Source: a virus (lineage: Duplodnaviria; Heunggongvirae; Uroviricota; Caudoviricetes). Taken from it: DNA of 34,588 nucleotides. A program made the translations under genes and the position numbers. Every line of letters begins with the position of its first letter. The stretch's first letter is position 1. Shown piece by piece: positions 201 to 32,158 of the stretch. The notes under the pieces are model-generated. The model saw nothing but the letters and a program-made list of their open reading frames with translations, ran no database searches and was not told the origin of the DNA. The DNA is taken from IMG/VR virus record IMGVR_UViG_2778261256_000005, positions 1 to 34,588 of that record, one strand, 5' to 3'.

Positions 201-2774
201 TTACTGGACGGCGACAATCCGGTCTTCATTAACTTCCAGGCGAATCACTTTACCCGGAACCAATTCACCAGACAGTATTTGCTGTGCCAGCGGGTTTTCG
301 ATCTGCTGCTGAATTGCACGTTTCAGAGGACGTGCACCATAGACCGGATCGTAACCGTTCTCGCTCAGCAGTTTCAGCGCCTCGTCAGAAATGTGGATTT
401 CATAACCACGTTCTTCCAGACGTTTGTACAGACGTTTCAACTGAATCTGCGCAATCGAGGCAATGTGCTGTTCACCCAGCGGATGGAAGACCACCACTTC
501 ATCGATACGGTTAATGAATTCCGGACGGAAGTTATGGCTTACCACACCGAGCACCAGCTCTTTCATGTGCGCATAATCCAGTTCACCGAAGCGTTCCTGA
601 ATCAGATCGGAACCGAGGTTAGAGGTCATAATGACGACCGTATTACGGAAGTCGACCGTTCTCCCTTGCCCGTCAGTCAGACGCCCATCATCCAGTACCT
701 GCAACAGAATGTTGAAGACATCCGGATGCGCTTTTTCCACTTCATCCAGCAGGATGACGGAATACGGACGACGACGCACCGCTTCGGTCAGGTAGCCACC
801 TTCTTCATAACCGACATATCCCGGAGGCGCACCAACCAAACGAGACACCGAGTGTTTCTCCATAAACTCGGACATATCGATACGGACCATCGCCTCGTCG
901 CTATCAAACATAAAGTTCGCCAGCGCCTTACAAAGCTCTGTTTTCCCCACACCAGTTGGGCCGAGGAACAGGAATGAACCAATCGGGCGATTTGGATCCG
1001 CCAGCCCCGCACGGCTACGACGAATAGCGTTAGATACCGCATCAACCGCTTCGTTCTGACCAATTACGCGATGGTGCAGTTCTTGCTCCATACGCAGCAG
1101 TTTTTCGCGCTCGCTTTCCATCATGCGAGAAACCGGAATCCCCGTCCAACGCGCCAGCACTTCAGCAATTTCGGCGTCGGTCACTTTATTACGCAACAGA
1201 CGCATAGTTTTGCCTTCGAGCTGCGTTGCGGCTTCCAGTTGCTTTTCCAGTTCCGGGATTTTGCCGTATTGCAGTTCAGACATCCGCGCCAGGTCCCCCA
1301 CACGGCGAGCCTGTTCAATAGCGATTTTCGCCTGTTCCAGTTCCGCTTTAATGGTCTGCGTACCAGAAAGCGATGCCTTCTCTGCTTTCCACTCTTCTTC
1401 TAACTCGGAGTACTGACGTTCTTTGTCGCTCAGTTCTTCGTTGAGCATATCCAGACGTTTTTTACTGGCTTCATCAGACTCTTTCATTAACGCCTGTTGT
1501 TCCAGTTTGAGCTGGATGATACGACGATCGAGTCGGTCGAGTTCTTCTGGTTTTGAGTCAATCTGCATACGAATGCTGGATGCTGCTTCATCGATCAGGT
1601 CGATGGCTTTATCCGGCAGCTGACGGTCAGCAATGTAGCGATGAGACAACGTCGCCGCTGCAACAATTGCCGGGTCAGTAATTTGCACATGGTGGTGCAA
1701 TTCGTAACGTTCTTTCAGGCCACGCAGAATCGCAATGGTATCTTCAACAGAAGGCTCGGCAACAAACACTTTCTGGAAACGACGTTCCAGCGCAGCATCT
1801 TTTTCAATGTACTGGCGATATTCGTCAAGCGTCGTGGCACCTACGCAGTGCAATTCACCACGCGCCAGCGCCGGTTTCAGCATGTTTCCGGCGTCCATTG
1901 CGCCATCGGCTTTACCCGCGCCGACCATGGTATGTAATTCGTCGATAAATAGGATGACGTTGCCTTCCTGTTTGGCAAGATCGTTAAGCACGCCTTTTAA
2001 ACGTTCTTCAAACTCACCGCGATATTTCGCCCCAGCCACCAGCGCGCCCATATCCAGCGCCAGTACCCGGCGGCCTTTCAACCCTTCCGGCACTTCGCCG
2101 TTGATAATACGCTGCGCCAGACCTTCAACGATGGCAGTTTTACCGACGCCGGGTTCACCAATCAGTACCGGGTTATTTTTAGTACGACGTTGCAGCACCT
2201 GAATGGTACGGCGAATTTCTTCATCACGACCAATCACCGGATCGAGTTTGCCCTGTTCGGCTCGTTCGGTAAGGTCGATGGTATATTTTTTCAAAGCCTG
2301 ACGTTGGTCTTCAGCACCTTGATCGTTCACGCTTTCACCTCCACGCATTTGTTCAATCGCTTGAGTAATGTTGGCGGTGGTCGCCCCTGCTGCTTTCAGG
2401 ATGTCGGCCAGCGTGCCGCGAGACTCAAGTGCCGCCAGAACGAACAGTTCTGACGAGATAAAGTTATCACCACGTTTTTGCGCCAGCTTGTCGCAAAGAT
2501 TAAGAACGCGCACCAGATCCTGTGATGGCTGGACATCACCACCAGTACCTTCAACCTGCGGTAAACGATTTAATGCCTGATTGATATCTGTGCGCAACTG
2601 GCCAGCATTTATGCCAGTGGATGTTAATAAAGGACTAACCGAACCCCCTTCCTGATTCAGCAGGGCGCTCATTAAATGAAGTGGTTCGATAAATTGGTTG
2701 TCGTGCCCGAGTGCAAGTGATTGGGCATCGGCAAGAGCAAGCTGGAATTTATTAGTAAGACGATCCAGACGCAT
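201..2774 (-). CDS. clpB: ClpB disaggregase (Hsp100 AAA+ chaperone), 857 aa
   Basis: ORF translation begins [10 protein letters not shown] at the second in-frame ATG (2774) preceded by GGGAGGAG; two Walker A motifs ([16 protein letters not shown]); track ORF 201..2786 has a 4-codon 5-prime extension. Confidence 0.96.
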
Positions 2775-2812
2775 AACTCCTCCCATAACGGATCAAAGTT
2801 GCTACTGGAGAT

Positions 2813-2841
2813 TAAATGAGGTCATCCCTCAATTATTCAAG
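2813..2841 (-). promoter_or_regulatory. sigma-32 heat-shock promoter of clpB
   Basis: Minus strand reads CTTGAAtaattgagggatgaCCTCATTTA upstream of clpB, matching sigma-32 consensus CTTGAA-N13/14-CCCCATnTA. Confidence 0.6.
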
Positions 2842-2903
2842 GTTATTGACCAGATTAATGTGAAAAGAAAATCACGCGTACCGGATCGTCTTGATTCTTT
2901 AGG

Positions 2904-5700: not shown

Positions 5701-6096
<396 letters not shown>

Positions 6097-6118
6097 TCCT
6101 TTATATTGAGTGTATCGC

Positions 6119-6146
6119 CAACGCGCCTTCGGGCGCGTTTTATTTA
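6119..6146 (+). terminator. Rho-independent terminator after raiA
   Basis: Stem acgcgcc (6121-6127) / ggcgcgt (6132-6138), loop ttcg, followed by tttattt. Confidence 0.7.
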
Positions 6147-6239
6147 CCTGTAGCACATTGAAATAAAAGGATTTATCTCAACAAACGTCCACATAGTGAC
6201 CACATCGACAATACAAACCCCGTTTCGACGGGGTTTCTT

Positions 6240-7427
6240 ATGCGTGTCAATAAGTCCACAGAGCATTCCCGACATCCGCAAAAAATGTTAACATCCATAA
6301 AAACACCAAGCGTAATTATTATAATGAAATATATTTTTGAATACGGACTTTATCTCAGCATACTTATAGCGACAATATATGTCACTTCTAAGTTATTGGG
6401 TATTACACCTGCAAAACATAAATACGCCTCGCTTGATGGCTTACGTGGAATTTGTGCAGCAATGGTTGCTGTATTCCATCTTTACTGGAGAGCCGGAGGA
6501 GAATCAGATATATACTGGTCTCTTGAGTACATTACACTCAGCAATGTAAAACGCGCCATATATCTAACAGGAGAGTTATCTGTTGGGGTCTTTTTTATGC
6601 TGTCTGCTTTTTTATTTTTCAAAAAGGCACTAGCGGACTCCTTCGATGTAAAAAGCTTTGCAATTTCACGATTCATGCGAATTTACCCACCTGTAGTTGT
6701 TCTTTTATTTATAATATATATTGCAACATTTATCATGAATCCGGATAACCATACTCCAGTATCGCAATGGTTTATATCTTCATTACCATTTATATTCAAT
6801 CCGCCTGGCGCTAACATCAATGGTGTATCGCTCCAGATTGCCACATCTGGTGTGTTCTGGACGTTAGTCTGGGAATTACGCCTATACCTTGCAATTCCAT
6901 TTTTATATCTGATAATGAAAAACATCAAATATAAAGAAGCATTTGTTATTTTTTTAATGGGATGTGTTTTATTATTCAAGTATTTTATAAACAATGAACA
7001 ACACCTGAGTTATATAATGTATTTCCTTGCAGGATTTCTTGTCGCTACAATCAAGAGCAACAAGCGCCCATCAGATATAATCTGCGCTTTATTATTATTC
7101 GCAGCCATATATTTTACTCGACATGCTTACAACACTACAACTCCGCTTTATATGTTTATTGTTTTCTACACAATAAAGTGCGGATGTGATTACTTTGGCT
7201 TACTTACATCCCTGCCTGTAACTATGCTGGGAACCTGCAGTTTCTCCCTTTATTTAGTTCATGGGATAACTCAAACAGTATCTAAACATTATTTATATAG
7301 TGCAGGAAACTATGTTTGGCAGATTTGTGCAATTATTGCGGCAGGTATCATTGCGCCGGTTATGTACAAATATGTCGAAAGTCGCAGCATCATACATAAG
7401 CGTCCTCAACTTCAGATTGCAAAGTAG
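6240..7427 (+). CDS. Acyltransferase family 3 integral membrane protein (Oac/OafA-like, putative surface polysaccharide O-acetyltransferase)
   Basis: Strongly AT-rich ORF; multi-pass hydrophobic protein with LDGLRGICAAMVAVFHL, FFMLSAFL, RFMRIYPP and SFSLYLVH motifs typical of acyltransferase-3 family; start uncertain (ATG 6240, 6285 or 6324, none with a strong SD). Confidence 0.7.
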   Translation: MRVNKSTEHSRHPQKMLTSIKTPSVIIIMKYIFEYGLYLSILIATIYVTSKLLGITPAKHKYASLDGLRGICAAMVAVFHLYWRAGGESDIYWSLEYITLSNVKRAIYLTGELSVGVFFMLSAFLFFKKALADSFDVKSFAISRFMRIYPPVVVLLFIIYIATFIMNPDNHTPVSQWFISSLPFIFNPPGANINGVSLQIATSGVFWTLVWELRLYLAIPFLYLIMKNIKYKEAFVIFLMGCVLLFKYFINNEQHLSYIMYFLAGFLVATIKSNKRPSDIICALLLFAAIYFTRHAYNTTTPLYMFIVFYTIKCGCDYFGLLTSLPVTMLGTCSFSLYLVHGITQTVSKHYLYSAGNYVWQICAIIAAGIIAPVMYKYVESRSIIHKRPQLQIAK

Positions 7428-7434
7428 AACATTT

Positions 7435-7454
7435 GCGCCCCTGAACAGGGGCGC
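7435..7454. other. GC-rich stem-loop just after acyltransferase gene (terminator-like, no U-tract)
   Basis: gcgcccct (7435-7442) gaac aggggcgc (7447-7454), perfect 8-bp stem. Confidence 0.35.
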
Positions 7455-7519
7455 TATCCCACCACGCTGTTAAAATTTTGTTTCGTCTTACTTAGCATTT
7501 TTAAGTTGCCCATCGGAAA

Positions 7520-7790
7520 AACGTCACAACCATCACGCCCCACAAAAAAAACCATTAACCATCTGATTATCATGAATAAATGTTGTGATGGTAAAACCAT
7601 CACAAAACGTAACGTAAACCGTCACACCCTATAAATTCAGCGAGTTATAAAACAGAGTTGTGATGTTTTAAGGCCGTCACACTGTGATGCTCTTGTGATG
7701 CTCTTGTGATGGTTTTCAATATATGAATTTACTTATACATATCATATAGATAAATGATATTTTTTAAATCTGTGATGTTTGTGACGGTTT
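7520..7790. repeat. Cluster of iteron-like TGTGATG / CATCACA motifs incl. 9-bp inverted repeat and 11-bp tandem duplication, next to an AT-rich block
   Basis: GTGATG at 7585, 7660, 7684, 7695, 7706, 7772; CATCAC at 7531, 7598; inverted repeat ttgtgatgg-N5-ccatcacaa (7583-7605); tandem tgatgctcttg x2 (7686-7707); AT-rich stretch 7712-7770; no ORF >=60 aa in 7430-8440. Confidence 0.5.
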
Positions 7791-8420
7791 TCCGATGCTC
7801 CCCCTAAATTTTTGAAAAAATTAGAAGTGGTCAGAAATCACCCTGATTTGTTGGTGGTTTTGTATATATCTCTGTTAGTGATTTGAGCATTGGTGCAGTA
7901 CGTTAATGTAGGTATGGCTATAGTTCAGGCTGTGCAAAGTATTTCAGTTCCGCATCTCACGGTCATTCCGCGCCAGAACACATCAAATAAGGCCTTGTCA
8001 CTTTCTCCCGCTTACGTGATCCCGCTGCGGCCGTTACGTTAAAAGTCACGTAATCACTGTTAAACCCGCATGAAGTCCGGCACCGTCATTTTTCACCCAC
8101 GGCCGGTAATTGCACAAAAACTGTAATCCTTGAAATCTGTTTCACATATTTCAGTCGGTGAACTACCGCCAAAGCCCCAGCGCTGGCGCAGTCTGGCGAT
8201 GTGTTTTGTACCCCCAGAAAAACTGAAATCATTCTCAACACGAAAACCGCAGGCGGGTGCGGTGTAGCGCCGTTTTCGTCACTTCCGCCGTTATTTCGTC
8301 GTGGCAGGCTGCATCAGCGCCTTGCTGTGCTTTTAAAGCTAATTAAGTTGGGATTGGAGCGGGTGTAGATACTGTCGGCGCTCAGAATGCGTCTGGTGAG
8401 GTCTGGTGGGTGCGATAAAG

Positions 8421-8444
8421 CCCGCATGACGCGGGCTGGTTGAG
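8421..8444 (-). terminator. Putative terminator of the phage late (tail) operon
   Basis: Perfect 7-bp stem agcccgc/gcgggct (8421-8438) directly after stop of the 567-aa gene, followed on minus strand by ttat. Confidence 0.4.
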
Positions 8445-8447
8445 AAA

Positions 8448-10151
8448 TCAGGCGATAATGTTCTGGTACTTGCTCCGGGTCTGCCCGGCTTTCGTCGCCG
8501 TCTGTGTAAACTCGGCGGCATTGGTTGGAGTCCCAACGGTGGGGTGTGAATGGTTCGCGCATTGCTGCGCCAGTTCTGCCAGTAAATCAATGGTGTCCAG
8601 CATCATGGTCAGGGCGTTGATACTCTCGCTGCCAATATGGACTGTTGCCCCCATGACCTGCTGACCGCCAGCGGCCACTGATTTACGCAGTGCGGCAATC
8701 TTCTCTGTCAGGCTTTCGCCAACCTCCACGGCTACAGCACCGCCCACTTTAGTGGACTGCTGTCCTGCTATGTCCGTTTCTTCGTTTCCTTCAATACTGG
8801 CCAGCCTGTTACCTTTCACCGCCTGGCTATAATCACCGGCGCTTACCTGCTGGATGGCTCCGGCCAGCAGTGTGGTGGTTCCCAGTACCGTGGTTTTGTC
8901 CGTGGCTTTCACCGTGGTTTCACGGCTGACCAGTTCGCGCTGCTCCGTATCGGCTTTTACGGTTCGCGCCATCGATGTTTCACTGATGGTTTGATCGGTC
9001 TGCCTTACCCAGTCTCCAGCCTGAGTCACCCTCTGGGATACTTCTTCCCTCTGCTGCTGCAATTGCTCACCGGGTTTAACGTCCGGCAGGCTGGTACCAT
9101 CCGGCAGCGTCTGCCTGATAAAGGGTTTATCCGGTCTGCCTCCCGTGAATGCAACCTCAACCAGCGTCCCTTCTGGCGGAAACTGAAACATACCTGAATC
9201 ATTCCCGGCCATTGGCACCGGCAGCGGCACCGCTGAGTAAACAGGCGTCTGATTGTCCGGGTTTCCGTCTGCGTCAAGCAGCTGAACGTCCACGGCATAA
9301 CGTGGCCGGAATGGATCGGCAAAATTACCACTTTTCACGGGTTCAGTATGTGCCACCACTCTGGCCATCTTTGGCAGATGAAGCCCGGAAGCCAGTTCCG
9401 GATAATGGCTCTCAATCTGTCGTTGTGTCGGTGTTTTCTGAAGGGGGCTGCCTGTGACGCGGTTCCGGGGTGTCCAGGTGATAGTCATCGTGTCATTTGT
9501 AAGATGGACTTTGGTGACCCGTTCACCGTTAAGCTCAACGCCGGGTCGTATCGTCTGGATCACCGGTAACGTTATGGTATTCCCGCCAGCAGCCCCCTGG
9601 CTGAACTCTGCCGGCACTTCGACCGGACGACCGGTAAACAGTGACTTTTCAGCACCGCCGACGTAAAGCGAACCATCAGGCAACTGGTACCAGATGTAAT
9701 CCTGGATACTGAATGCCCTGCCCAGGTTGTTCAGCAACTGATAGCCGGTACCGTTATGGGTGAAATGGGGGATCGGAGTATCGCTGTAAGACACATCGGG
9801 TACACTGACACCGATCCCGCTGTTTTCCGTCAGCCAGCCGGCTACATCCCTTAATGTCGGGTGCTGAAATGAACATGGCCACATCCTTTCAAAAACACCG
9901 GCCAGCTCACGAATGAACAGACGCTGATAACCGTTTTCAGCTGGTTGTGAACGTTCAACATAACCGGTAAACCAGCGCAAAAGCAGGTCGGTATATCCCA
10001 CATCCAGCCGCACCAGTTTCCCGGTATAATCAGTGGTTGTCTCTGCGGTAATAAATCCCCGACCGCAACTGTTAAGCTCCAGTACCAGGCTGGCATCAGC
10101 CAGATGCACTTCATCCGTTGAAAGGTAAAGACGTTTAACTGGTTTCATCAT
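8448..10151 (-). CDS. Phage tail/baseplate protein, putative hub-spike (gpD/gpV- or VgrG-like), 567 aa
   Basis: Last gene of translationally coupled tail operon (start overlaps upstream stop, TAATG); C-terminal half is T/V/A/G-rich like spike beta-structure; family assignment is by position and composition only. Confidence 0.4.
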   Translation of the reverse strand: MMKPVKRLYLSTDEVHLADASLVLELNSCGRGFITAETTTDYTGKLVRLDVGYTDLLLRWFTGYVERSQPAENGYQRLFIRELAGVFERMWPCSFQHPTLRDVAGWLTENSGIGVSVPDVSYSDTPIPHFTHNGTGYQLLNNLGRAFSIQDYIWYQLPDGSLYVGGAEKSLFTGRPVEVPAEFSQGAAGGNTITLPVIQTIRPGVELNGERVTKVHLTNDTMTITWTPRNRVTGSPLQKTPTQRQIESHYPELASGLHLPKMARVVAHTEPVKSGNFADPFRPRYAVDVQLLDADGNPDNQTPVYSAVPLPVPMAGNDSGMFQFPPEGTLVEVAFTGGRPDKPFIRQTLPDGTSLPDVKPGEQLQQQREEVSQRVTQAGDWVRQTDQTISETSMARTVKADTEQRELVSRETTVKATDKTTVLGTTTLLAGAIQQVSAGDYSQAVKGNRLASIEGNEETDIAGQQSTKVGGAVAVEVGESLTEKIAALRKSVAAGGQQVMGATVHIGSESINALTMMLDTIDLLAELAQQCANHSHPTVGTPTNAAEFTQTATKAGQTRSKYQNIIA

Positions 10152-14144: not shown

Positions 14145-15321
14145 TTTCAACAACAACCGCAAGCGATTTCAGGCGTGGAACACTCAGTTCGCTGGTGATA
14201 TCACCCAGTGAAAAAGACAGTGATTCCGTCTGAGCAAATGTCCTGTGGATCTCCCGCCCCAGCTGAGAAAAGGAAAAACGCGAATATGGCCACGTCTTCC
14301 TGACGTCATAATCAGCATTCTCACGAAAAGCACAGCGGATCATGTTCTCCACCCCGTCCTTCAGGGTTTTCCTGTCCTCATCGCTGAAATTGGCCAGATT
14401 TTTGACATAAACTGTGACGGACAGATCATGAAGCGTTTCCGGCATGGGATAGCACTGCATATCATCACCGTGGCCGTGATGCCCCTGCGTGTTGATATAG
14501 TCATTGACGGCATCCACGAACGGCGAAGAAGCCACCCCGCTGTCCAGCAACAGATACGCGTTGGCGGTACCGGGTCCCCTCGGCGCTTCATGTTCAAAGA
14601 AAATCCGGTCAATACTCAGCCCTGCAACGCCGGCAATCATCGACCGGTAAACGGCGTCAGTGTGGTAATTCCCCACCAGATTGAACTGATTGCGGCAGCG
14701 TTCGCGCAGCTCGTCATCACTTTCTTCATCCGCGCCCGGTACGGTCAGCCAGTTTTCTTCGCTGGCCACGTGGCTGATACCGTCAACGGCAACCGGCAGA
14801 ATGCGGTAATATCCCGGCGCAAGGTTATATGCGCCCCCGGTGCCGGTGGCTTTTACCGGCAGTAATGCGCAGGCCGTACCGGAAGCGATCACTACATCCT
14901 CACTGGTGGCCAGCTCATACACGCGACCGTTAATGCGCTCTGTCTGGATAACCGTCCCGGCTTTCACCGTCACCACCGCTCTTGCATCTTCTTTGAAGAA
15001 GCGGATCACACCCTGTGCCGCGCTCGCCGGTTTTGCCGTGACGTTCACCGCCCACGCCAGCAGACGCAACATGCTCCCGCTGGCCGTGGCCACAAACATG
15101 TTGGCCAGCACAGTGAACACCAGAACGTCTTTCAGCCACATTACTGGTGCGGTCACAATGGCGGTGATTAACCGCCAGAACGGTGACATGCGGGACGTAT
15201 TGGTGATGATGCCCTCCTCATCCGCGATCGCATTGAAGCGATCGTGAACCTCAGATTCCGTCACCGGCATCCCGCTGGCTTTCACCACTTCTTCAAAATC
15301 AACCTGGGGCTTTTCCGTCAT
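14137..15321 (-). CDS. Baseplate J-like protein (gpJ/gp6 family)
   Basis: ATG 15321 overlaps stop of upstream gene (ATGA); position W-J-I-H-G conserved with P2. Confidence 0.7.
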   Translation of the reverse strand: MTEKPQVDFEEVVKASGMPVTESEVHDRFNAIADEEGIITNTSRMSPFWRLITAIVTAPVMWLKDVLVFTVLANMFVATASGSMLRLLAWAVNVTAKPASAAQGVIRFFKEDARAVVTVKAGTVIQTERINGRVYELATSEDVVIASGTACALLPVKATGTGGAYNLAPGYYRILPVAVDGISHVASEENWLTVPGADEESDDELRERCRNQFNLVGNYHTDAVYRSMIAGVAGLSIDRIFFEHEAPRGPGTANAYLLLDSGVASSPFVDAVNDYINTQGHHGHGDDMQCYPMPETLHDLSVTVYVKNLANFSDEDRKTLKDGVENMIRCAFRENADYDVRKTWPYSRFSFSQLGREIHRTFAQTESLSFSLGDITSELSVPRLKSLAVVVENE

Positions 15322-28712: not shown

Positions 28713-29432
28713 ATGTTAATAGTCTCAGTTCTTAAATGTAGTAAAGAGTTTACCCCTAAACACGCCCAATGGCTTCATCGTCAGTTCAAAGATATTCCAT
28801 CTATATGTTTAACCGATGCAGATAATATTCCTGGAGTTAACACAACCCCTTTGCTTTATAACTGGCCGGGATGGTGGTCTAAAATTGAACTATTTAATCC
28901 TAATCACCCAGTCCTTGGAGACCAAGATTTACTCTATTTTGACGTAGATGTTGTGGTCACGGGAGATATTCATATTTTCGAAGGTGCGAAGAAATTTACA
29001 ATGCTTCGGGAGTTTAACCATGCCTCAAGAGTAAACTCATCAATAATGATGATTCCGGCGTCGATTAAAAAGACGATTTGGGAACAATTCATTATTGATC
29101 CTGAGAAAATTATGCGCAATTGTCAGACTGAAGACAAATGGGGTGATCAGGGATTTCTCGGTAGCATCATAAAACCAGCCCTATGGCAGGATATCATTCC
29201 TGGCTCAATTGTTAGTTATAAATGTGACATCGCCACCCCCTCGATGATTGGCTTCAATGCAAATTTAGCCTCTGAGGCTGCGACAGGGAAAGTCCCTGAT
29301 AATGTGGCGGTTGTTTGCTTTCATGGCAGTCCACGCCCCTGGCGTACTGGTTTTGATTGGGTTCCTTCGTTTTCCCTGCGGGATACTCTGTACGGTAAAT
29401 TAAAGAACTTTAAAATAAGAATGAAGCAATAA
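28713..29432 (+). CDS. GT8-family (GT-A fold, retaining) glycosyltransferase-like protein, 239 aa
   Basis: AT-rich ORF with strong SD (GGGAGG); motifs LLYFDVDVVV (DxD), WGDQGFL and VVCFHGSPRPW align with LgtC/WaaJ-type GT8 motifs (YLDIDVLV, QDQDILN, HYCGPAKPW); no signal peptide or TMD. Confidence 0.6.
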   Translation: MLIVSVLKCSKEFTPKHAQWLHRQFKDIPSICLTDADNIPGVNTTPLLYNWPGWWSKIELFNPNHPVLGDQDLLYFDVDVVVTGDIHIFEGAKKFTMLREFNHASRVNSSIMMIPASIKKTIWEQFIIDPEKIMRNCQTEDKWGDQGFLGSIIKPALWQDIIPGSIVSYKCDIATPSMIGFNANLASEAATGKVPDNVAVVCFHGSPRPWRTGFDWVPSFSLRDTLYGKLKNFKIRMKQ

Positions 29433-29500: not shown

Positions 29501-32158
29501 TTACTTTTCCCGGCCAAATATCCAGCAGCGGAATGTTTCCGGCATCCGTTGCATATCCCCTTTACCACGATTATGGCGCTCACTTACCGCGCTGCGCGTG
29601 GTGCTTTGTCTGATAAACCGGCGCTCATTGCCGTTTTTAAGCAGCTTTTTAATTTCCGTTAACGTGAACGGAATACGCTGCCGGTGTGCTGCGGCGACCT
29701 CTTCCATGTGATTGAAATTAACCGCGATTTCATTTTCATCTGATGAATGATTGATGCCATAAGGTGCCAGTTCATCCAAGTAATCAAACAGCTCCCAGAA
29801 CTCCTGCACCAGAGGATGATCCTTTTTAAGTGCCTGACAACGTTCAACGGCCAGCGCGGTGATGGCTTCACGCGTTTTTTCTATACGTTCAACCGGCACC
29901 GGTACAACAAGTGCAAGCGCCTCCAGCAAGCCCACAAGCTGCGCGTGATTCTTTGCAATACGGATATGGCGAATACTGCTATTAGACTCCAGCTCATTCC
30001 TAGCTCGCTCGTACCCCCTGCCGAACGTCTGCATGATTTCTTTTTCGCGCATGGTGGCCAGTAATGTGAATCCGGATACCTGGCTAACGGGGAGTTGTTC
30101 AAGTCGTTCTGCAGCGTGGCGCGTCTGAATGGACTGGCCGCGCTTGTCGGTATAGATGTGGATGATACGCTCCAGAAACGCCTTGCTGCCGTCTGTGTCG
30201 GCATTTTGCGCTATCACAATACTTCCCCTGAACGGCGGCTCATACGTCTCGTTATTGTTCGATTTGATACCCACGGCGCGGGAGGCACGACCGTTATACA
30301 GTGATTTCAGCTCGTCCCAGTCAAAAGCGCGTTGCTTGGCGTTATCGGTAGTACGGTCGCCCTCAATCAGCACAACCGGCAGATTACCGACCTGGGCGAA
30401 GTTACGGCCACGCGCGGCGGCGGTAGATTTAGATGGGTCAAACCCTTCGTATTCCTCACGGCCGGCGAGCTTCCAGAGAAATTCTATCAGCGTGGATTTA
30501 CCTGTCCCCGGCTCGCCCACGATTTCCAGAAACGGAAATGACTTGTCACGCTCGCGGATTTGTTCGGCAAACAGCGACCCCAGCCAGAACGCCAGCGCCA
30601 CATACCCTTTTTCACCAAATGCCGTCCAGATATCGTCTACCCAACCCGTAGTAAACTCGTTCAGCTTCGGATTCAGATCCAGCGCCGGCGTGAGGCTCAG
30701 GCTCTTAACGCTGGCACTGTTGATTTCGAAGTAATCCTCGTCGTTCATCTCATACAGCCGGCCATCGCAAACGGCCACGCGGTTAAACAACCAGGCGGCA
30801 TAATCCTTGTTATAGCCGATGAAATTCTGCGTCTTTACCTCTTTGATTTCAGGGAGGCGCATCTGGATGAACTTATCCAGCTGTTTGGTGCTGCCTGTGT
30901 ACACCGCCCCTTTGGCGATGTGCAGCAGACGCTTTTTGAACTCGGCGGAGCTGGTGAGCTGATTAGCCGTGAAAGTATCTTTCACGGCTGGCCGGTTAGG
31001 CATACTGACTTTCACGTAATACCAGGACTCGTCCGTAGGTTCAGACCGCTGAAAGTAAAGCGGCGTCAGCCAGCAGTTAGCTATTTCGGTCACGCCGCCT
31101 GACTCTTTAACCGCCCGTTCTTTGGCCTCCCACTCCATCACCACTTCGGTACCGGTATTGGTGATGCGCTCATAGGCTCGCATATACCTGTCCAGATCCA
31201 GCTCAAACCAGTACATGCGGGAGTTATGCTCAAAGTAGAACGAGTGCCACTCGTTATGCTGATGCATGAGCAGCGCTTTCTCAGTCGGGCTTTTTGCCAG
31301 AAGGAGATCGCCATAGTAGCGATAATTTTTAATGTCCGACTTACTGAACCGGTTACGTAACAACAGGTCATTCCAGTCCAGCGATGCCGATGATTTCACC
31401 GGCTGCGCGGCACGAGTTTTCCATCCTGCAGCATCACTACGGGCAGCGAACGCCAGTGTGTGCTTTGTGCCGGCTTTATCGCCGTCAAACGCCCATACAA
31501 GACGTGGACGTGGTTTTTCACCCAGTTCTTTGGCCAGCGTATCCAGTGCGGCCAGCGGATAGTTGTTACTGCTCAGTGTGGCAACTGCAGGTAACCCTGC
31601 CTGGCACAGACTCAGCGCGTTGAAGATTCCCTCAGTGATCCAGATTTCGTTCACTTCCTGCAGGTTGATAAAGGGAGGAACCCACCAGTGACCGACATAG
31701 CTTCCCCTGATGTTGGCTTTCTGCTTACCGAAGCGCTGCGGCTGGTCAATGATGCGCTCCCATGTTGCACCGCATGACAGCGAAAATCTGACCGTTGCCG
31801 ACCCCATGCCATCTTTCACGAATGCACCCTGGGTAAAACAGCCTTTTAATGGCTCAGTCTCCAGCCCTCTGGCCTCGCGCAGATACGCCTCAGCTACTGC
31901 ATGGGGGTTATCTTCTGTGGTCTGGTAACGTTTTGACCAGTCTTCAAAGATATCCGGATACAGCTCTTTCACGACAATCTGATGTGCGCAGTTATTTTCA
32001 CGGCCACATTTCAGAATCCAGGGCTTTTCTATGCTGGTAAATAATTCGCGCTTACGACAGGCAGGGCAAACGCCCTGCTGCAAATACTTATCCCGCTCTT
32101 TAAATTCAAAGTCCCGAACAAGACGGCGCACAACGTCCTGTTGTATCGTTTCGTTCAT
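29501..32158 (-). CDS. Replicative primase-helicase (N-terminal zinc finger, TOPRIM primase, D5-like P-loop NTPase)
   Basis: 885 aa; CPACx15CGRENNCAH zinc-binding pattern, acidic TOPRIM-like segment (WITEG ... DGDKAG), Walker A VGEPGTGKST. Confidence 0.8.
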   Translation of the reverse strand: MNETIQQDVVRRLVRDFEFKERDKYLQQGVCPACRKRELFTSIEKPWILKCGRENNCAHQIVVKELYPDIFEDWSKRYQTTEDNPHAVAEAYLREARGLETEPLKGCFTQGAFVKDGMGSATVRFSLSCGATWERIIDQPQRFGKQKANIRGSYVGHWWVPPFINLQEVNEIWITEGIFNALSLCQAGLPAVATLSSNNYPLAALDTLAKELGEKPRPRLVWAFDGDKAGTKHTLAFAARSDAAGWKTRAAQPVKSSASLDWNDLLLRNRFSKSDIKNYRYYGDLLLAKSPTEKALLMHQHNEWHSFYFEHNSRMYWFELDLDRYMRAYERITNTGTEVVMEWEAKERAVKESGGVTEIANCWLTPLYFQRSEPTDESWYYVKVSMPNRPAVKDTFTANQLTSSAEFKKRLLHIAKGAVYTGSTKQLDKFIQMRLPEIKEVKTQNFIGYNKDYAAWLFNRVAVCDGRLYEMNDEDYFEINSASVKSLSLTPALDLNPKLNEFTTGWVDDIWTAFGEKGYVALAFWLGSLFAEQIRERDKSFPFLEIVGEPGTGKSTLIEFLWKLAGREEYEGFDPSKSTAAARGRNFAQVGNLPVVLIEGDRTTDNAKQRAFDWDELKSLYNGRASRAVGIKSNNNETYEPPFRGSIVIAQNADTDGSKAFLERIIHIYTDKRGQSIQTRHAAERLEQLPVSQVSGFTLLATMREKEIMQTFGRGYERARNELESNSSIRHIRIAKNHAQLVGLLEALALVVPVPVERIEKTREAITALAVERCQALKKDHPLVQEFWELFDYLDELAPYGINHSSDENEIAVNFNHMEEVAAAHRQRIPFTLTEIKKLLKNGNERRFIRQSTTRSAVSERHNRGKGDMQRMPETFRCWIFGREK

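Follow-up and report, generated by a model that had tools for sequence, protein, structure and literature searches.

A probable iteron-type replication origin beside a cos site in a gene-free kilobase of an ESSI-2-like Escherichia coli prophage

Introduction

What is the role of a kilobase of phage DNA that contains no gene? Positions 7430-8447 of IMG/VR virus record IMGVR_UViG_2778261256_000005 raise this question. The whole stretch analysed, 34,588 nucleotides, is referred to here as the window; it begins in the Escherichia coli chromosome (clpB, yfiH, rluD, bamD, raiA) and continues into a P2-family prophage of the Evevirus/ESSI-2-like type, which is inserted between raiA and pheL and is covered apart from the end of int. 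The region lies between the stop codon, at 7427, of an acyltransferase open reading frame (ORF; Acyl_transf_3, Pfam) and the end, at 8448, of a minus-strand gene for a 567-residue baseplate-hub protein. Its RefSeq annotation is empty in all 19 genomes that contain the full region, and it is rare, being present in 26 of 5,426 complete E. coli genomes. The nearest described phage is Escherichia phage ESSI2_ev239 (Evevirus; provenance in PMC6969025), with a primase that is 95% identical and 82.5% identity across 7430-8260.

An earlier note, made from the sequence letters alone, treated the kilobase as one ORF-free feature resembling an iteron-type origin with a DNA-unwinding element. The region indeed contains no ORF of 60 or more residues, the largest having 55; two minus-strand ORFs of 82 and 83 residues (8314-8562 and 8339-8590) cross its right edge and start inside the 567-residue gene in other frames. 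The kilobase is composite, though, and its right third (7930-8290), overlooked in the note, is identified here as the cohesive-end packaging site (cos), an element separate from the repeat array; comparative support for the origin extends over 7508-7800. The arrangement that probably holds is an iteron-type replication origin for a self-loading primase-helicase at 7508-7855, followed by cos at 7930-8290. The origin assignment of the array, a comparative one, is well supported because the array co-occurs with the primase, homologous arrays lie beside primase genes, and the C-terminal domain of the primase resembles those of the Cch and SaPI Rep helicases.

Anatomy of the repeat array

The array and its immediate flank comprise the following features:

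7508-7805, both strands: iteron array, proposed origin core, with 12 TGTGAYG(G) sites within 7510-7799
7510-7536, minus strand: left terminal double iteron plus CATCGGAAAA
7583-7592 and 7596-7605: inverted pair, a perfect 10-bp repeat with a 3-nt spacer
7616-7626, 7657-7669 and 7672-7681: single iteron sites
7683-7716: three tandem iteron copies with an 11-bp period, TGTGATGCTCT twice at 7683-7704 and a third TGTGATG at 7705
7716-7770, no strand: AT-rich block inside the array, 82-85% A+T in 40-bp windows, with the invariant core ATATCATATAGATA
7771-7799, plus strand: right terminal double iteron plus GGTTTTCCGATG
7800-7805: C-run
7826-7885, no strand: conserved right flank of the array module, GGTCAGAAATCACCCTGATTTGTTGGT...TGTATAT..CTGTTAGTGATTTG, present in all array-bearing relatives and in the metagenomic genome L102 described below

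Eleven of the 18 matches to TGTGAYG in the window fall within 7522-7786; the Poisson probability of finding at least 11 in 265 bp is 2.7e-22. By eye, the at least eight copies of GTGATG/CATCAC given in the note amount to exactly eight, and four GTGACG/CGTCAC copies bring the number of sites to 12; the same number is obtained with the longer iteron consensus TTGTGAYGGTTTT when degenerate copies are counted. The left-hand sites are mostly on the minus strand and the right-hand sites on the plus strand, and a 37-nt imperfect inverted repeat bounds the whole array. A scan of the whole window for clusters of 7-mers, validated on phage P4, where crr and ori were the two top matches, returned the array as the sole dense cluster of short repeats.

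The 11-bp tandem duplication and the AT-rich block reported earlier are both real. The unit TGTGATGCTCT occurs three times here and four times in ten otherwise near-identical prophages from pig, pork and cattle (L319, strain NT1F10, among them), and the 55-bp block 7716-7770 is proposed to be a DNA-unwinding element. An inverted repeat is likewise present, not in the 9-bp form with a 5-bp spacer that had been described but as the 10-bp pair with a 3-nt spacer (7583-7605) and a 9-bp hairpin with a 2-nt spacer at 7435-7454. CRP, DnaA and IHF sites were considered and rejected: there is no DnaA box (TTWTNCACA) within 7430-8447, and a site scan gave one weak IHF-like and one Fis-like match.

Conservation of the array module

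Across 13 aligned sequences that bear the array, neither the TGTGAYG sites nor the core ATATCATATAGATA vary, while the spacers at 7537-7565 and 7716-7735 drift. Homology begins sharply at about 7505, to the left of which at least five unrelated cargo flanks are found; the array is therefore separate from the acyltransferase cassette. The right flank is conserved to about 7855-7885, with L060 and L101 diverging past about 7855, and in two relatives a 550-bp insertion separates the array from cos. These alignments delimit 7508-7855 as a conserved repeat module distinct from cos. A non-integrated metagenomic ESSI-2-like genome (IMGVR_UViG_3300010279_000222, L102) carries a homologous module in the same position (8340-8640), in which 11 GGTTACA copies replace TGTGAYG and the AT core is still recognisable.

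Partial copies occur in other settings. The Salmonella IncF plasmid CP053580 (L318) contains, at 7000-7225, the left two-thirds of the array up to the AT core at 71.5% identity, next to microcin-type secretion genes on a conjugative plasmid with no primase nearby; a copy is also found in CP054717, and that of CP053580 is probably a captured fragment. In E. coli S1-CHI-01-A (L009), a 57-bp remnant (AAACCGTCACAC...GTTGTGAT; 14860-15060) lies in another P2-like prophage, which occupies the same raiA site, adjoining nine tandem CTTCATCG copies between an old-like nuclease gene and hok. The simple tandem repeats at similar positions in L113 and L009 (GGGACTCC and CTTCATCG) are a different kind of element and were rejected as candidate arrays. 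Strain YPE10 (L002) and two other genomes contain deletion derivatives of the prophage that retain the array and lack cos: one deletion fuses position 7914 to mid-gene sequence of baseplate J, and another has taken out head genes.

Association with the primase-helicase

29501-32158, minus strand: primase-helicase of 885 residues, proposed initiator, with Toprim and superfamily 3 (SF3)-type P-loop helicase domains (Pfam) and a C-terminal helical plus winged-helix-like domain at residues about 690-885

The primase-helicase is 40-47% identical to phiCTX orf37 and the RSY1 primase (phiCTX 41%). Comparison with other prophages carrying the same protein, which the earlier note had advised, links it to the array. 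Among ESSI-2-like viral contigs sharing the baseplate gene and cos, all four evaluable contigs with this primase contain the array, versus 0 of 17 with the P2 A-type (ESSI-2-type A protein) initiator (Fisher p=1.7e-4). In genomes with two prophages, the array is found in the primase-bearing prophage only (L065 and L067 are without it). Immediately downstream of the primase gene in the window there are only 69 nt, free of repeats, and the adjacency of initiator gene and origin that is the rule in Staphylococcus aureus pathogenicity islands (SaPI) is absent.

That adjacency is found among more distant relatives. A profile search recovered primases that are 51-56% identical (L133-L144), downstream of which lie dense arrays of GTCACA, GTTACA or CGTTACA (7-13 copies). 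The array starts 0.2-1.3 kb past the primase gene in L133-L140, L142 and L144, and past the adjacent int gene in L141. The repeat is GTCACA in L133 (ten copies, 250 nt past the primase stop), GGTTACA in L137, L139, L142 and L144 (9-13 copies), CGTTACA in L134, L136 and L138, CCTTACA in L140 and GGTCACA in L141 (ten copies). In L137, a P2-like phage, int, C, cox and the primase gene precede the array, and the portal, terminase and capsid genes come after it; the contigs of L141, L142 and L144 are satellite-sized. These arrays share with the window a design that reads G-run, CGGAAAAC(G)-repeat-repeat, AT-rich segments, internal repeats in two orientations, repeat-repeat-GTTTTCCGA(G/T) and C-run; the bounded architecture matches in L133, L137, L141, L102 and the R3 repeats of phiCTX. 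A possible counter-example, L078/L135 (primase 61% identical), was discarded, as that contig stops just short of the expected array start.

Conservation within the primase family drops past residue about 705. L141, with GTCACA repeats, and L142/L144, with GTTACA repeats, have primases that are 95-96% identical over the N-terminal 700 residues and 75-79% identical in the C-terminal domain. The divergence of this domain alongside the change of repeat hints that it may confer specificity. An AlphaFold model of residues 690-885, computed from a 14-sequence alignment, has a pLDDT of 91 and shows a helical bundle followed by a winged-helix-like unit. A sequence search of the PDB gave no match. In a Foldseek comparison with the PDB, the best meaningful match of the model was the Cch helicase of the staphylococcal cassette chromosome mec (SCCmec; 5dgk, probability 0.97, E 0.018), and SaPI Rep (8tch) was also matched; the predicted domain thus models onto the origin-binding end of these helicases.

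Comparison with known replication systems

Origins of the SaPI Rep/PriRep and SCCmec Cch systems consist of 6-12 repeats around an AT-rich centre that point in opposite directions on its two sides, and the C-terminal winged helix of the initiator reads the repeats (PMC9371898). The same arrangement is seen here: short repeats flank an AT-rich centre, each end has two or more sites that point in opposite directions, the initiator would be a fused primase-helicase, and in relatives the array directly follows the initiator gene. The window thus combines clustered repeats in two orientations, a flanked AT-rich region and a candidate initiator with primase, SF3-type helicase and C-terminal winged helix. 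The differences are that no sequence homology to SaPI Rep is detectable, that the element belongs to a P2-family phage of a Gram-negative host, that its repeats are 7-8 bp long and number 12, and that the proposed origin is unlinked from the initiator gene and located beside cos.

Phage P4 provides a Gram-negative analogue from the P2/P4 world. Its ori and crr contain octamer repeats in both orientations at a spacing of about 10-11 bp, its alpha protein combines primase, helicase and origin-binding functions, and its origin is several kilobases from the initiator gene. Similarity to alpha is marginal and colinear, at Toprim and the P-loop (E about 0.002-0.004), the repeat here is TGTGAYGG rather than TGTTCACC, and there is one cluster instead of ori plus crr.

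An alternative is that the array is an auxiliary, crr-like site, or a copy-control (handcuffing) site, for the primase-helicase, and replication starts elsewhere in the phage. P4 requires both of its repeat clusters, and the array in relatives occupies the position of P4 crr, right after the primase gene. The window, however, contains a single cluster, with no second group of TGTGAYG, and the array has its own conserved AT-rich core between oppositely oriented double sites, which is the layout of a SaPI ori. We consider the alternative unlikely.

Another close parallel to the proposed origin is the R3 repeat region of the Pseudomonas phage phiCTX (NC_003278, 35100-35390). The primase of phiCTX is homologous, its order of int, attP, array and cos is the same, and R3 follows the same design: about 15 short repeats in oppositely oriented halves, a double repeat with TTTTCC at the end, and an imperfect inverted repeat of 45 nt that encloses the array. 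The repeat is different, GGTAAT(TT), and the record assigns it no function. Smp131 has a similar array, six copies of AGGTAAC near its cos end. The literature searched, from which the original phiCTX papers were absent, gave no defined origin for phiCTX, RSA1, RSY1 or Smp131.

The cos site

The right part of the region contains the following features:

8240-8279, plus strand: cos cleavage site, with core GGCGGGTGCGGTGTAGCGC at 8252-8270 and arms ACGAAAACCGC / GCCGTTTTCGT at 8240-8250 and 8269-8279
7930-8239, no strand: cos-flanking region with candidate terminase small-subunit sites, ACTGWAAT at 7941-7948 (minus), 8120-8127 (plus), 8148-8155 (minus) and 8222-8229 (plus)
8033-8056 and 8170-8189: other conserved islands of the cos flank seen in alignments, TTACGT-N10-ACGTAA and CAAAGCCCCAGCGCTGGCGC, respectively

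The physical ends of two related phage genomes fall within 8252-8270; they are ends of relatives and not of this prophage. The record of Cronobacter phage ESSI-2 ends in ...GCAGGCGGGTGCGGTGTAG and begins with GCGGGTGCGGTGTAGTGCCG, a 15-nt terminal repeat, GCGGGTGCGGTGTAG, that corresponds to 8253-8267; the cohesive-end repeats in the records of P2 and phiCTX are 19 and 21 nt long. The ev239 contig, which comes from a virome, breaks off at ...CGCAGGCGGG and runs into Nextera adapter; it restarts at GTGCGGTGTAGCGCC after about 112 nt of chimeric sequence. The core GGCGGGTGCGGTGTAGCGC is unique in the window, and four of the five ACTGWAAT matches in the window lie in 7941-8229. A survey of 80 viral contigs encoding a baseplate protein 77-95% identical to that of the window, 72 of them with enough downstream DNA, found the cos core with 0-1 mismatch in about 70 of the 72, usually about 185 nt past the baseplate gene; most of the 70 relatives have 4-5 copies of ACTGAAA beside it. 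The 39-bp core alone matches more than 400 E. coli genomes.

The site shares with P2-family cos sites (P2, 186, P4, phiCTX, Smp131) a GC-rich core starting with GGCG, a position about 150-170 nt from the terminator of the leftward late operon, and its use in common with P4-like satellites (PMC3931495); in P2 the order is cos, about 160 nt, then tQ. It differs in lying by the baseplate-hub gene on the attP side rather than by the portal gene, and in the 15-nt rather than 19-nt overlap of the ESSI-2 record.

The proximity of the two elements raises the possibility that the array is an accessory of packaging or recombination, such as an extended cosB for the terminase small subunit or a site for Int/Cox in excision, rather than of replication. 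The array occupies the interval from cos to attP, at 450 bp from the cos core; a place close to cos is shared by the arrays of phiCTX and Smp131, and phiCTX R3 has annotated integration host factor (IHF) sites. Against such a role, the 17 A-type phages lack the array despite having the same cos core and a baseplate gene 77-95% identical. The array moreover follows the primase gene in L133 and L137 and the int gene next to the primase in L141, and in L137 about 3 kb lie between it and the presumed cos, which adjoins the portal gene. Better candidates exist for both accessory functions, namely the separate ACTGAAAT repeats by cos for terminase and a different repeat, GTCCACA, clustered at attP as likely Int arm sites; a 1.3-kb cargo gene also lies between the array and the att core. 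An accessory role is quite improbable on this evidence.

Several further observations concern cos. In E. coli JJ1886 (ST131; L010, NC_022648) a P4-like satellite carries a complete cos of the ESSI-2 type at 5860-6040, with ACTGAAAA repeats and GGCGGGTGCGGTGTAGTGC and not of the P2 type, which suggests an ESSI-2/Evevirus-like helper phage. The genes of the satellite include a DUF927 primase, ogr/delta, a sce7726/cII-like gene and an integrase at tRNA-Arg, and nine copies of GGTAACA form an array directly 3' of the primase gene. The ev239 RefSeq record (L005/L008, NC_049392) ends in Nextera adapter plus poly-A and starts with about 112 nt that are apparently chimeric. Its small hypothetical proteins gp36 and gp37, which are placed in the non-coding DNA that separates the array from the cos core, with gp37 overlapping the cos-flanking repeats, are probably spurious. 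E. coli Combat13F7 (L004) has, at 6001-6149, 77% identity to the cos-flanking segment 8131-8280 in a 186-like cryptic prophage by mntR, where it adjoins a homologue of the 239-residue hypothetical protein of the window (28713-29432).

Other explanations of the region

The array could also be what is left of a small mobile element, or could bind some other regulator or a partition protein, and have been kept by hitch-hiking. The 37-nt terminal inverted repeats with G/C runs at both ends and the truncated copies in unrelated contexts (the IncF Salmonella plasmid and another P2-like prophage) would fit such an origin. Each element, however, has one copy, always with one primase family; among diverged copies the internal sites stay constant and the spacers drift; the annotation of the prophage includes no gene for a transposase, a partition protein or an additional regulator; and the out-of-context copies are truncated and degenerate. 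This explanation is very unlikely. The partition-like site considered in the earlier note fares poorly, with no partition genes annotated in the prophage, and the features expected of a plasmid-type iteron origin are missing, there being no rep or par gene in the RefSeq annotation or Pfam scans and no DnaA box in 7430-8447.

There is equally little chance that the region is degraded coding sequence, a small protein gene or a non-coding RNA: a frame of 42-55 residues at 7914-8042 (plus strand) is open in most relatives and ev239 has two annotated small ORFs there, but the frame differs in ev239 and L057, its substitutions are mostly non-synonymous, several frames are open together, no ORF has a Pfam or PHROG match at E<0.01, the ev239 ORFs overlap the cos region, and no Rfam family matches at its gathering score. 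Rfam scans by gathering score and E-value gave chance-level matches only, and the isrK-like match is the operon terminator. Inconsistent conservation of the 7914-8042 frame and the absence of Pfam or PHROG homology likewise led to rejection of a degraded gene or small protein.

Prophage boundaries and neighbouring features

6120-6141, plus strand: attL core, identical to the raiA terminator hairpin AACGCGCCTTCGGGCGCGTTTT; marks the prophage boundary, outside the ORF-free region
7435-7454, plus strand: GC-rich hairpin with 9-bp stem and 2-nt loop, immediately 3' of the acyltransferase stop
8414-8437, minus strand: Rho-independent terminator of the tail/baseplate operon, AGCCCGC-GTCAT-GCGGGCT then TTTAT; terminal hairpin of the weak isrK match

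An attachment-site remnant had also been suggested for the kilobase. The att core duplicated at the prophage ends coincides, however, with the raiA terminator (6120-6141) and lies 1.3 kb left of the region, which is therefore not such a remnant. The 22-24 nt core recurs with one mismatch between int and pheL at the far prophage end (NZ_AP023286). Given these two positions, at 6120-6141 and next to int, the acyltransferase gene and the ORF-free kilobase lie inside the prophage at its int-distal end. The hairpin at 7435-7454 is common only to relatives with the same acyltransferase (the window, ev239 and L057), others having unrelated sequence there, and it probably marks where the acyltransferase cargo cassette ends. 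The surroundings of attP contain clustered GTCCACA repeats, with six copies in ev239 (L005, 18441-18741) and a cluster at about 6180-6262 in the window; these repeats differ from the TGTGAYG array and probably serve as arm-type sites for the integrase. Upstream of clpB, the small RNA RyfD (Ysr155; 2755-2893, minus strand; Rfam, 125 bits) is ordinary chromosomal content.

Discussion

The mechanism class to which the proposed origin belongs is already well known. From the anatomy and conservation of the array, its association with primase genes, the C-terminal fold and the position of the physical genome ends, we infer the following course of binding, melting, origin firing and nicking. After excision, the C-terminal winged-helix domain of the primase-helicase (29501-32158) would bind the 12 TGTGAYG(G) sites, and the oppositely oriented terminal double sites would place oligomers on both sides of the 55-bp AT-rich core at 7716-7770. 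The duplex would open at this core, where the primase-helicase could load as a helicase and prime synthesis. Terminase would presumably recognise the ACTGAAAT repeats and make staggered nicks within 8252-8270, giving the cohesive ends of virion DNA.

Several points weigh against this reading. The Fisher test takes no account of common descent, and in the circular form the array, attP, int, the immunity genes and the primase make up one contiguous arc, so that they may simply be co-inherited. The array is not beside the initiator gene; the distance between them is 22 kb in the prophage and about 6.5 kb in the circular form. Two groups of primases beside GGTTACA arrays have C-terminal domains that are only about 36% identical, and the covariation of repeat and domain is therefore only partial. 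The initiator of L102 was not recovered, scans with the primase profile, the L142 primase and an early-region exonuclease all having missed the contig. The literature searched contains no binding or origin-activity experiments for this or any other phage with a phiCTX-type primase. As to cos, the alignment to the P2, P4 and phiCTX sites is weak, the P2 19-mer GGCGAGGCGGGGAAAGCAC and GGCGGGTGCGGTGTAGCGC matching at 11 of 19 positions, and the site is therefore assigned to the P2-type cos class by its position and the physical ends rather than by sequence; the candidate overhang is either 15 or 19 nt long.

The array may, as we tentatively propose, be one allele of a widespread and exchangeable origin cassette, composed of a G-run, a double repeat plus TTTTCCGA, an AT core, a double repeat and a C-run, that serves primase-helicases of the phiCTX type, both in P2-like phages and in elements of satellite size, across hosts ranging from Pseudomonas to E. 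coli. If so, the cassette would explain the phiCTX R3 repeats, linking a function to a repeat region annotated without one, and would have been relocated next to cos in ESSI-2-like phages.

No mapped origin was found for P2-like phages in which a phiCTX-type primase-helicase replaces the rolling-circle A protein. The present analysis provides the ESSI-2/Evevirus group with a precise, testable origin, consisting of a 350-bp fragment and one protein, and with a precise cos. For annotation, cos and the proposed ori would account for the "empty" kilobase and show that the RefSeq record of one phage includes adapter sequence and spurious small ORFs. The natural repeat swaps offer material for work on the specificity of origins and on incompatibility among helper phages, co-resident prophages and satellites. 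Were the cassette proposal correct, the repeat alleles TGTGAYG, GTCACA, GGTTACA and GGTAAT would set replicon specificity among co-resident prophages and satellites.

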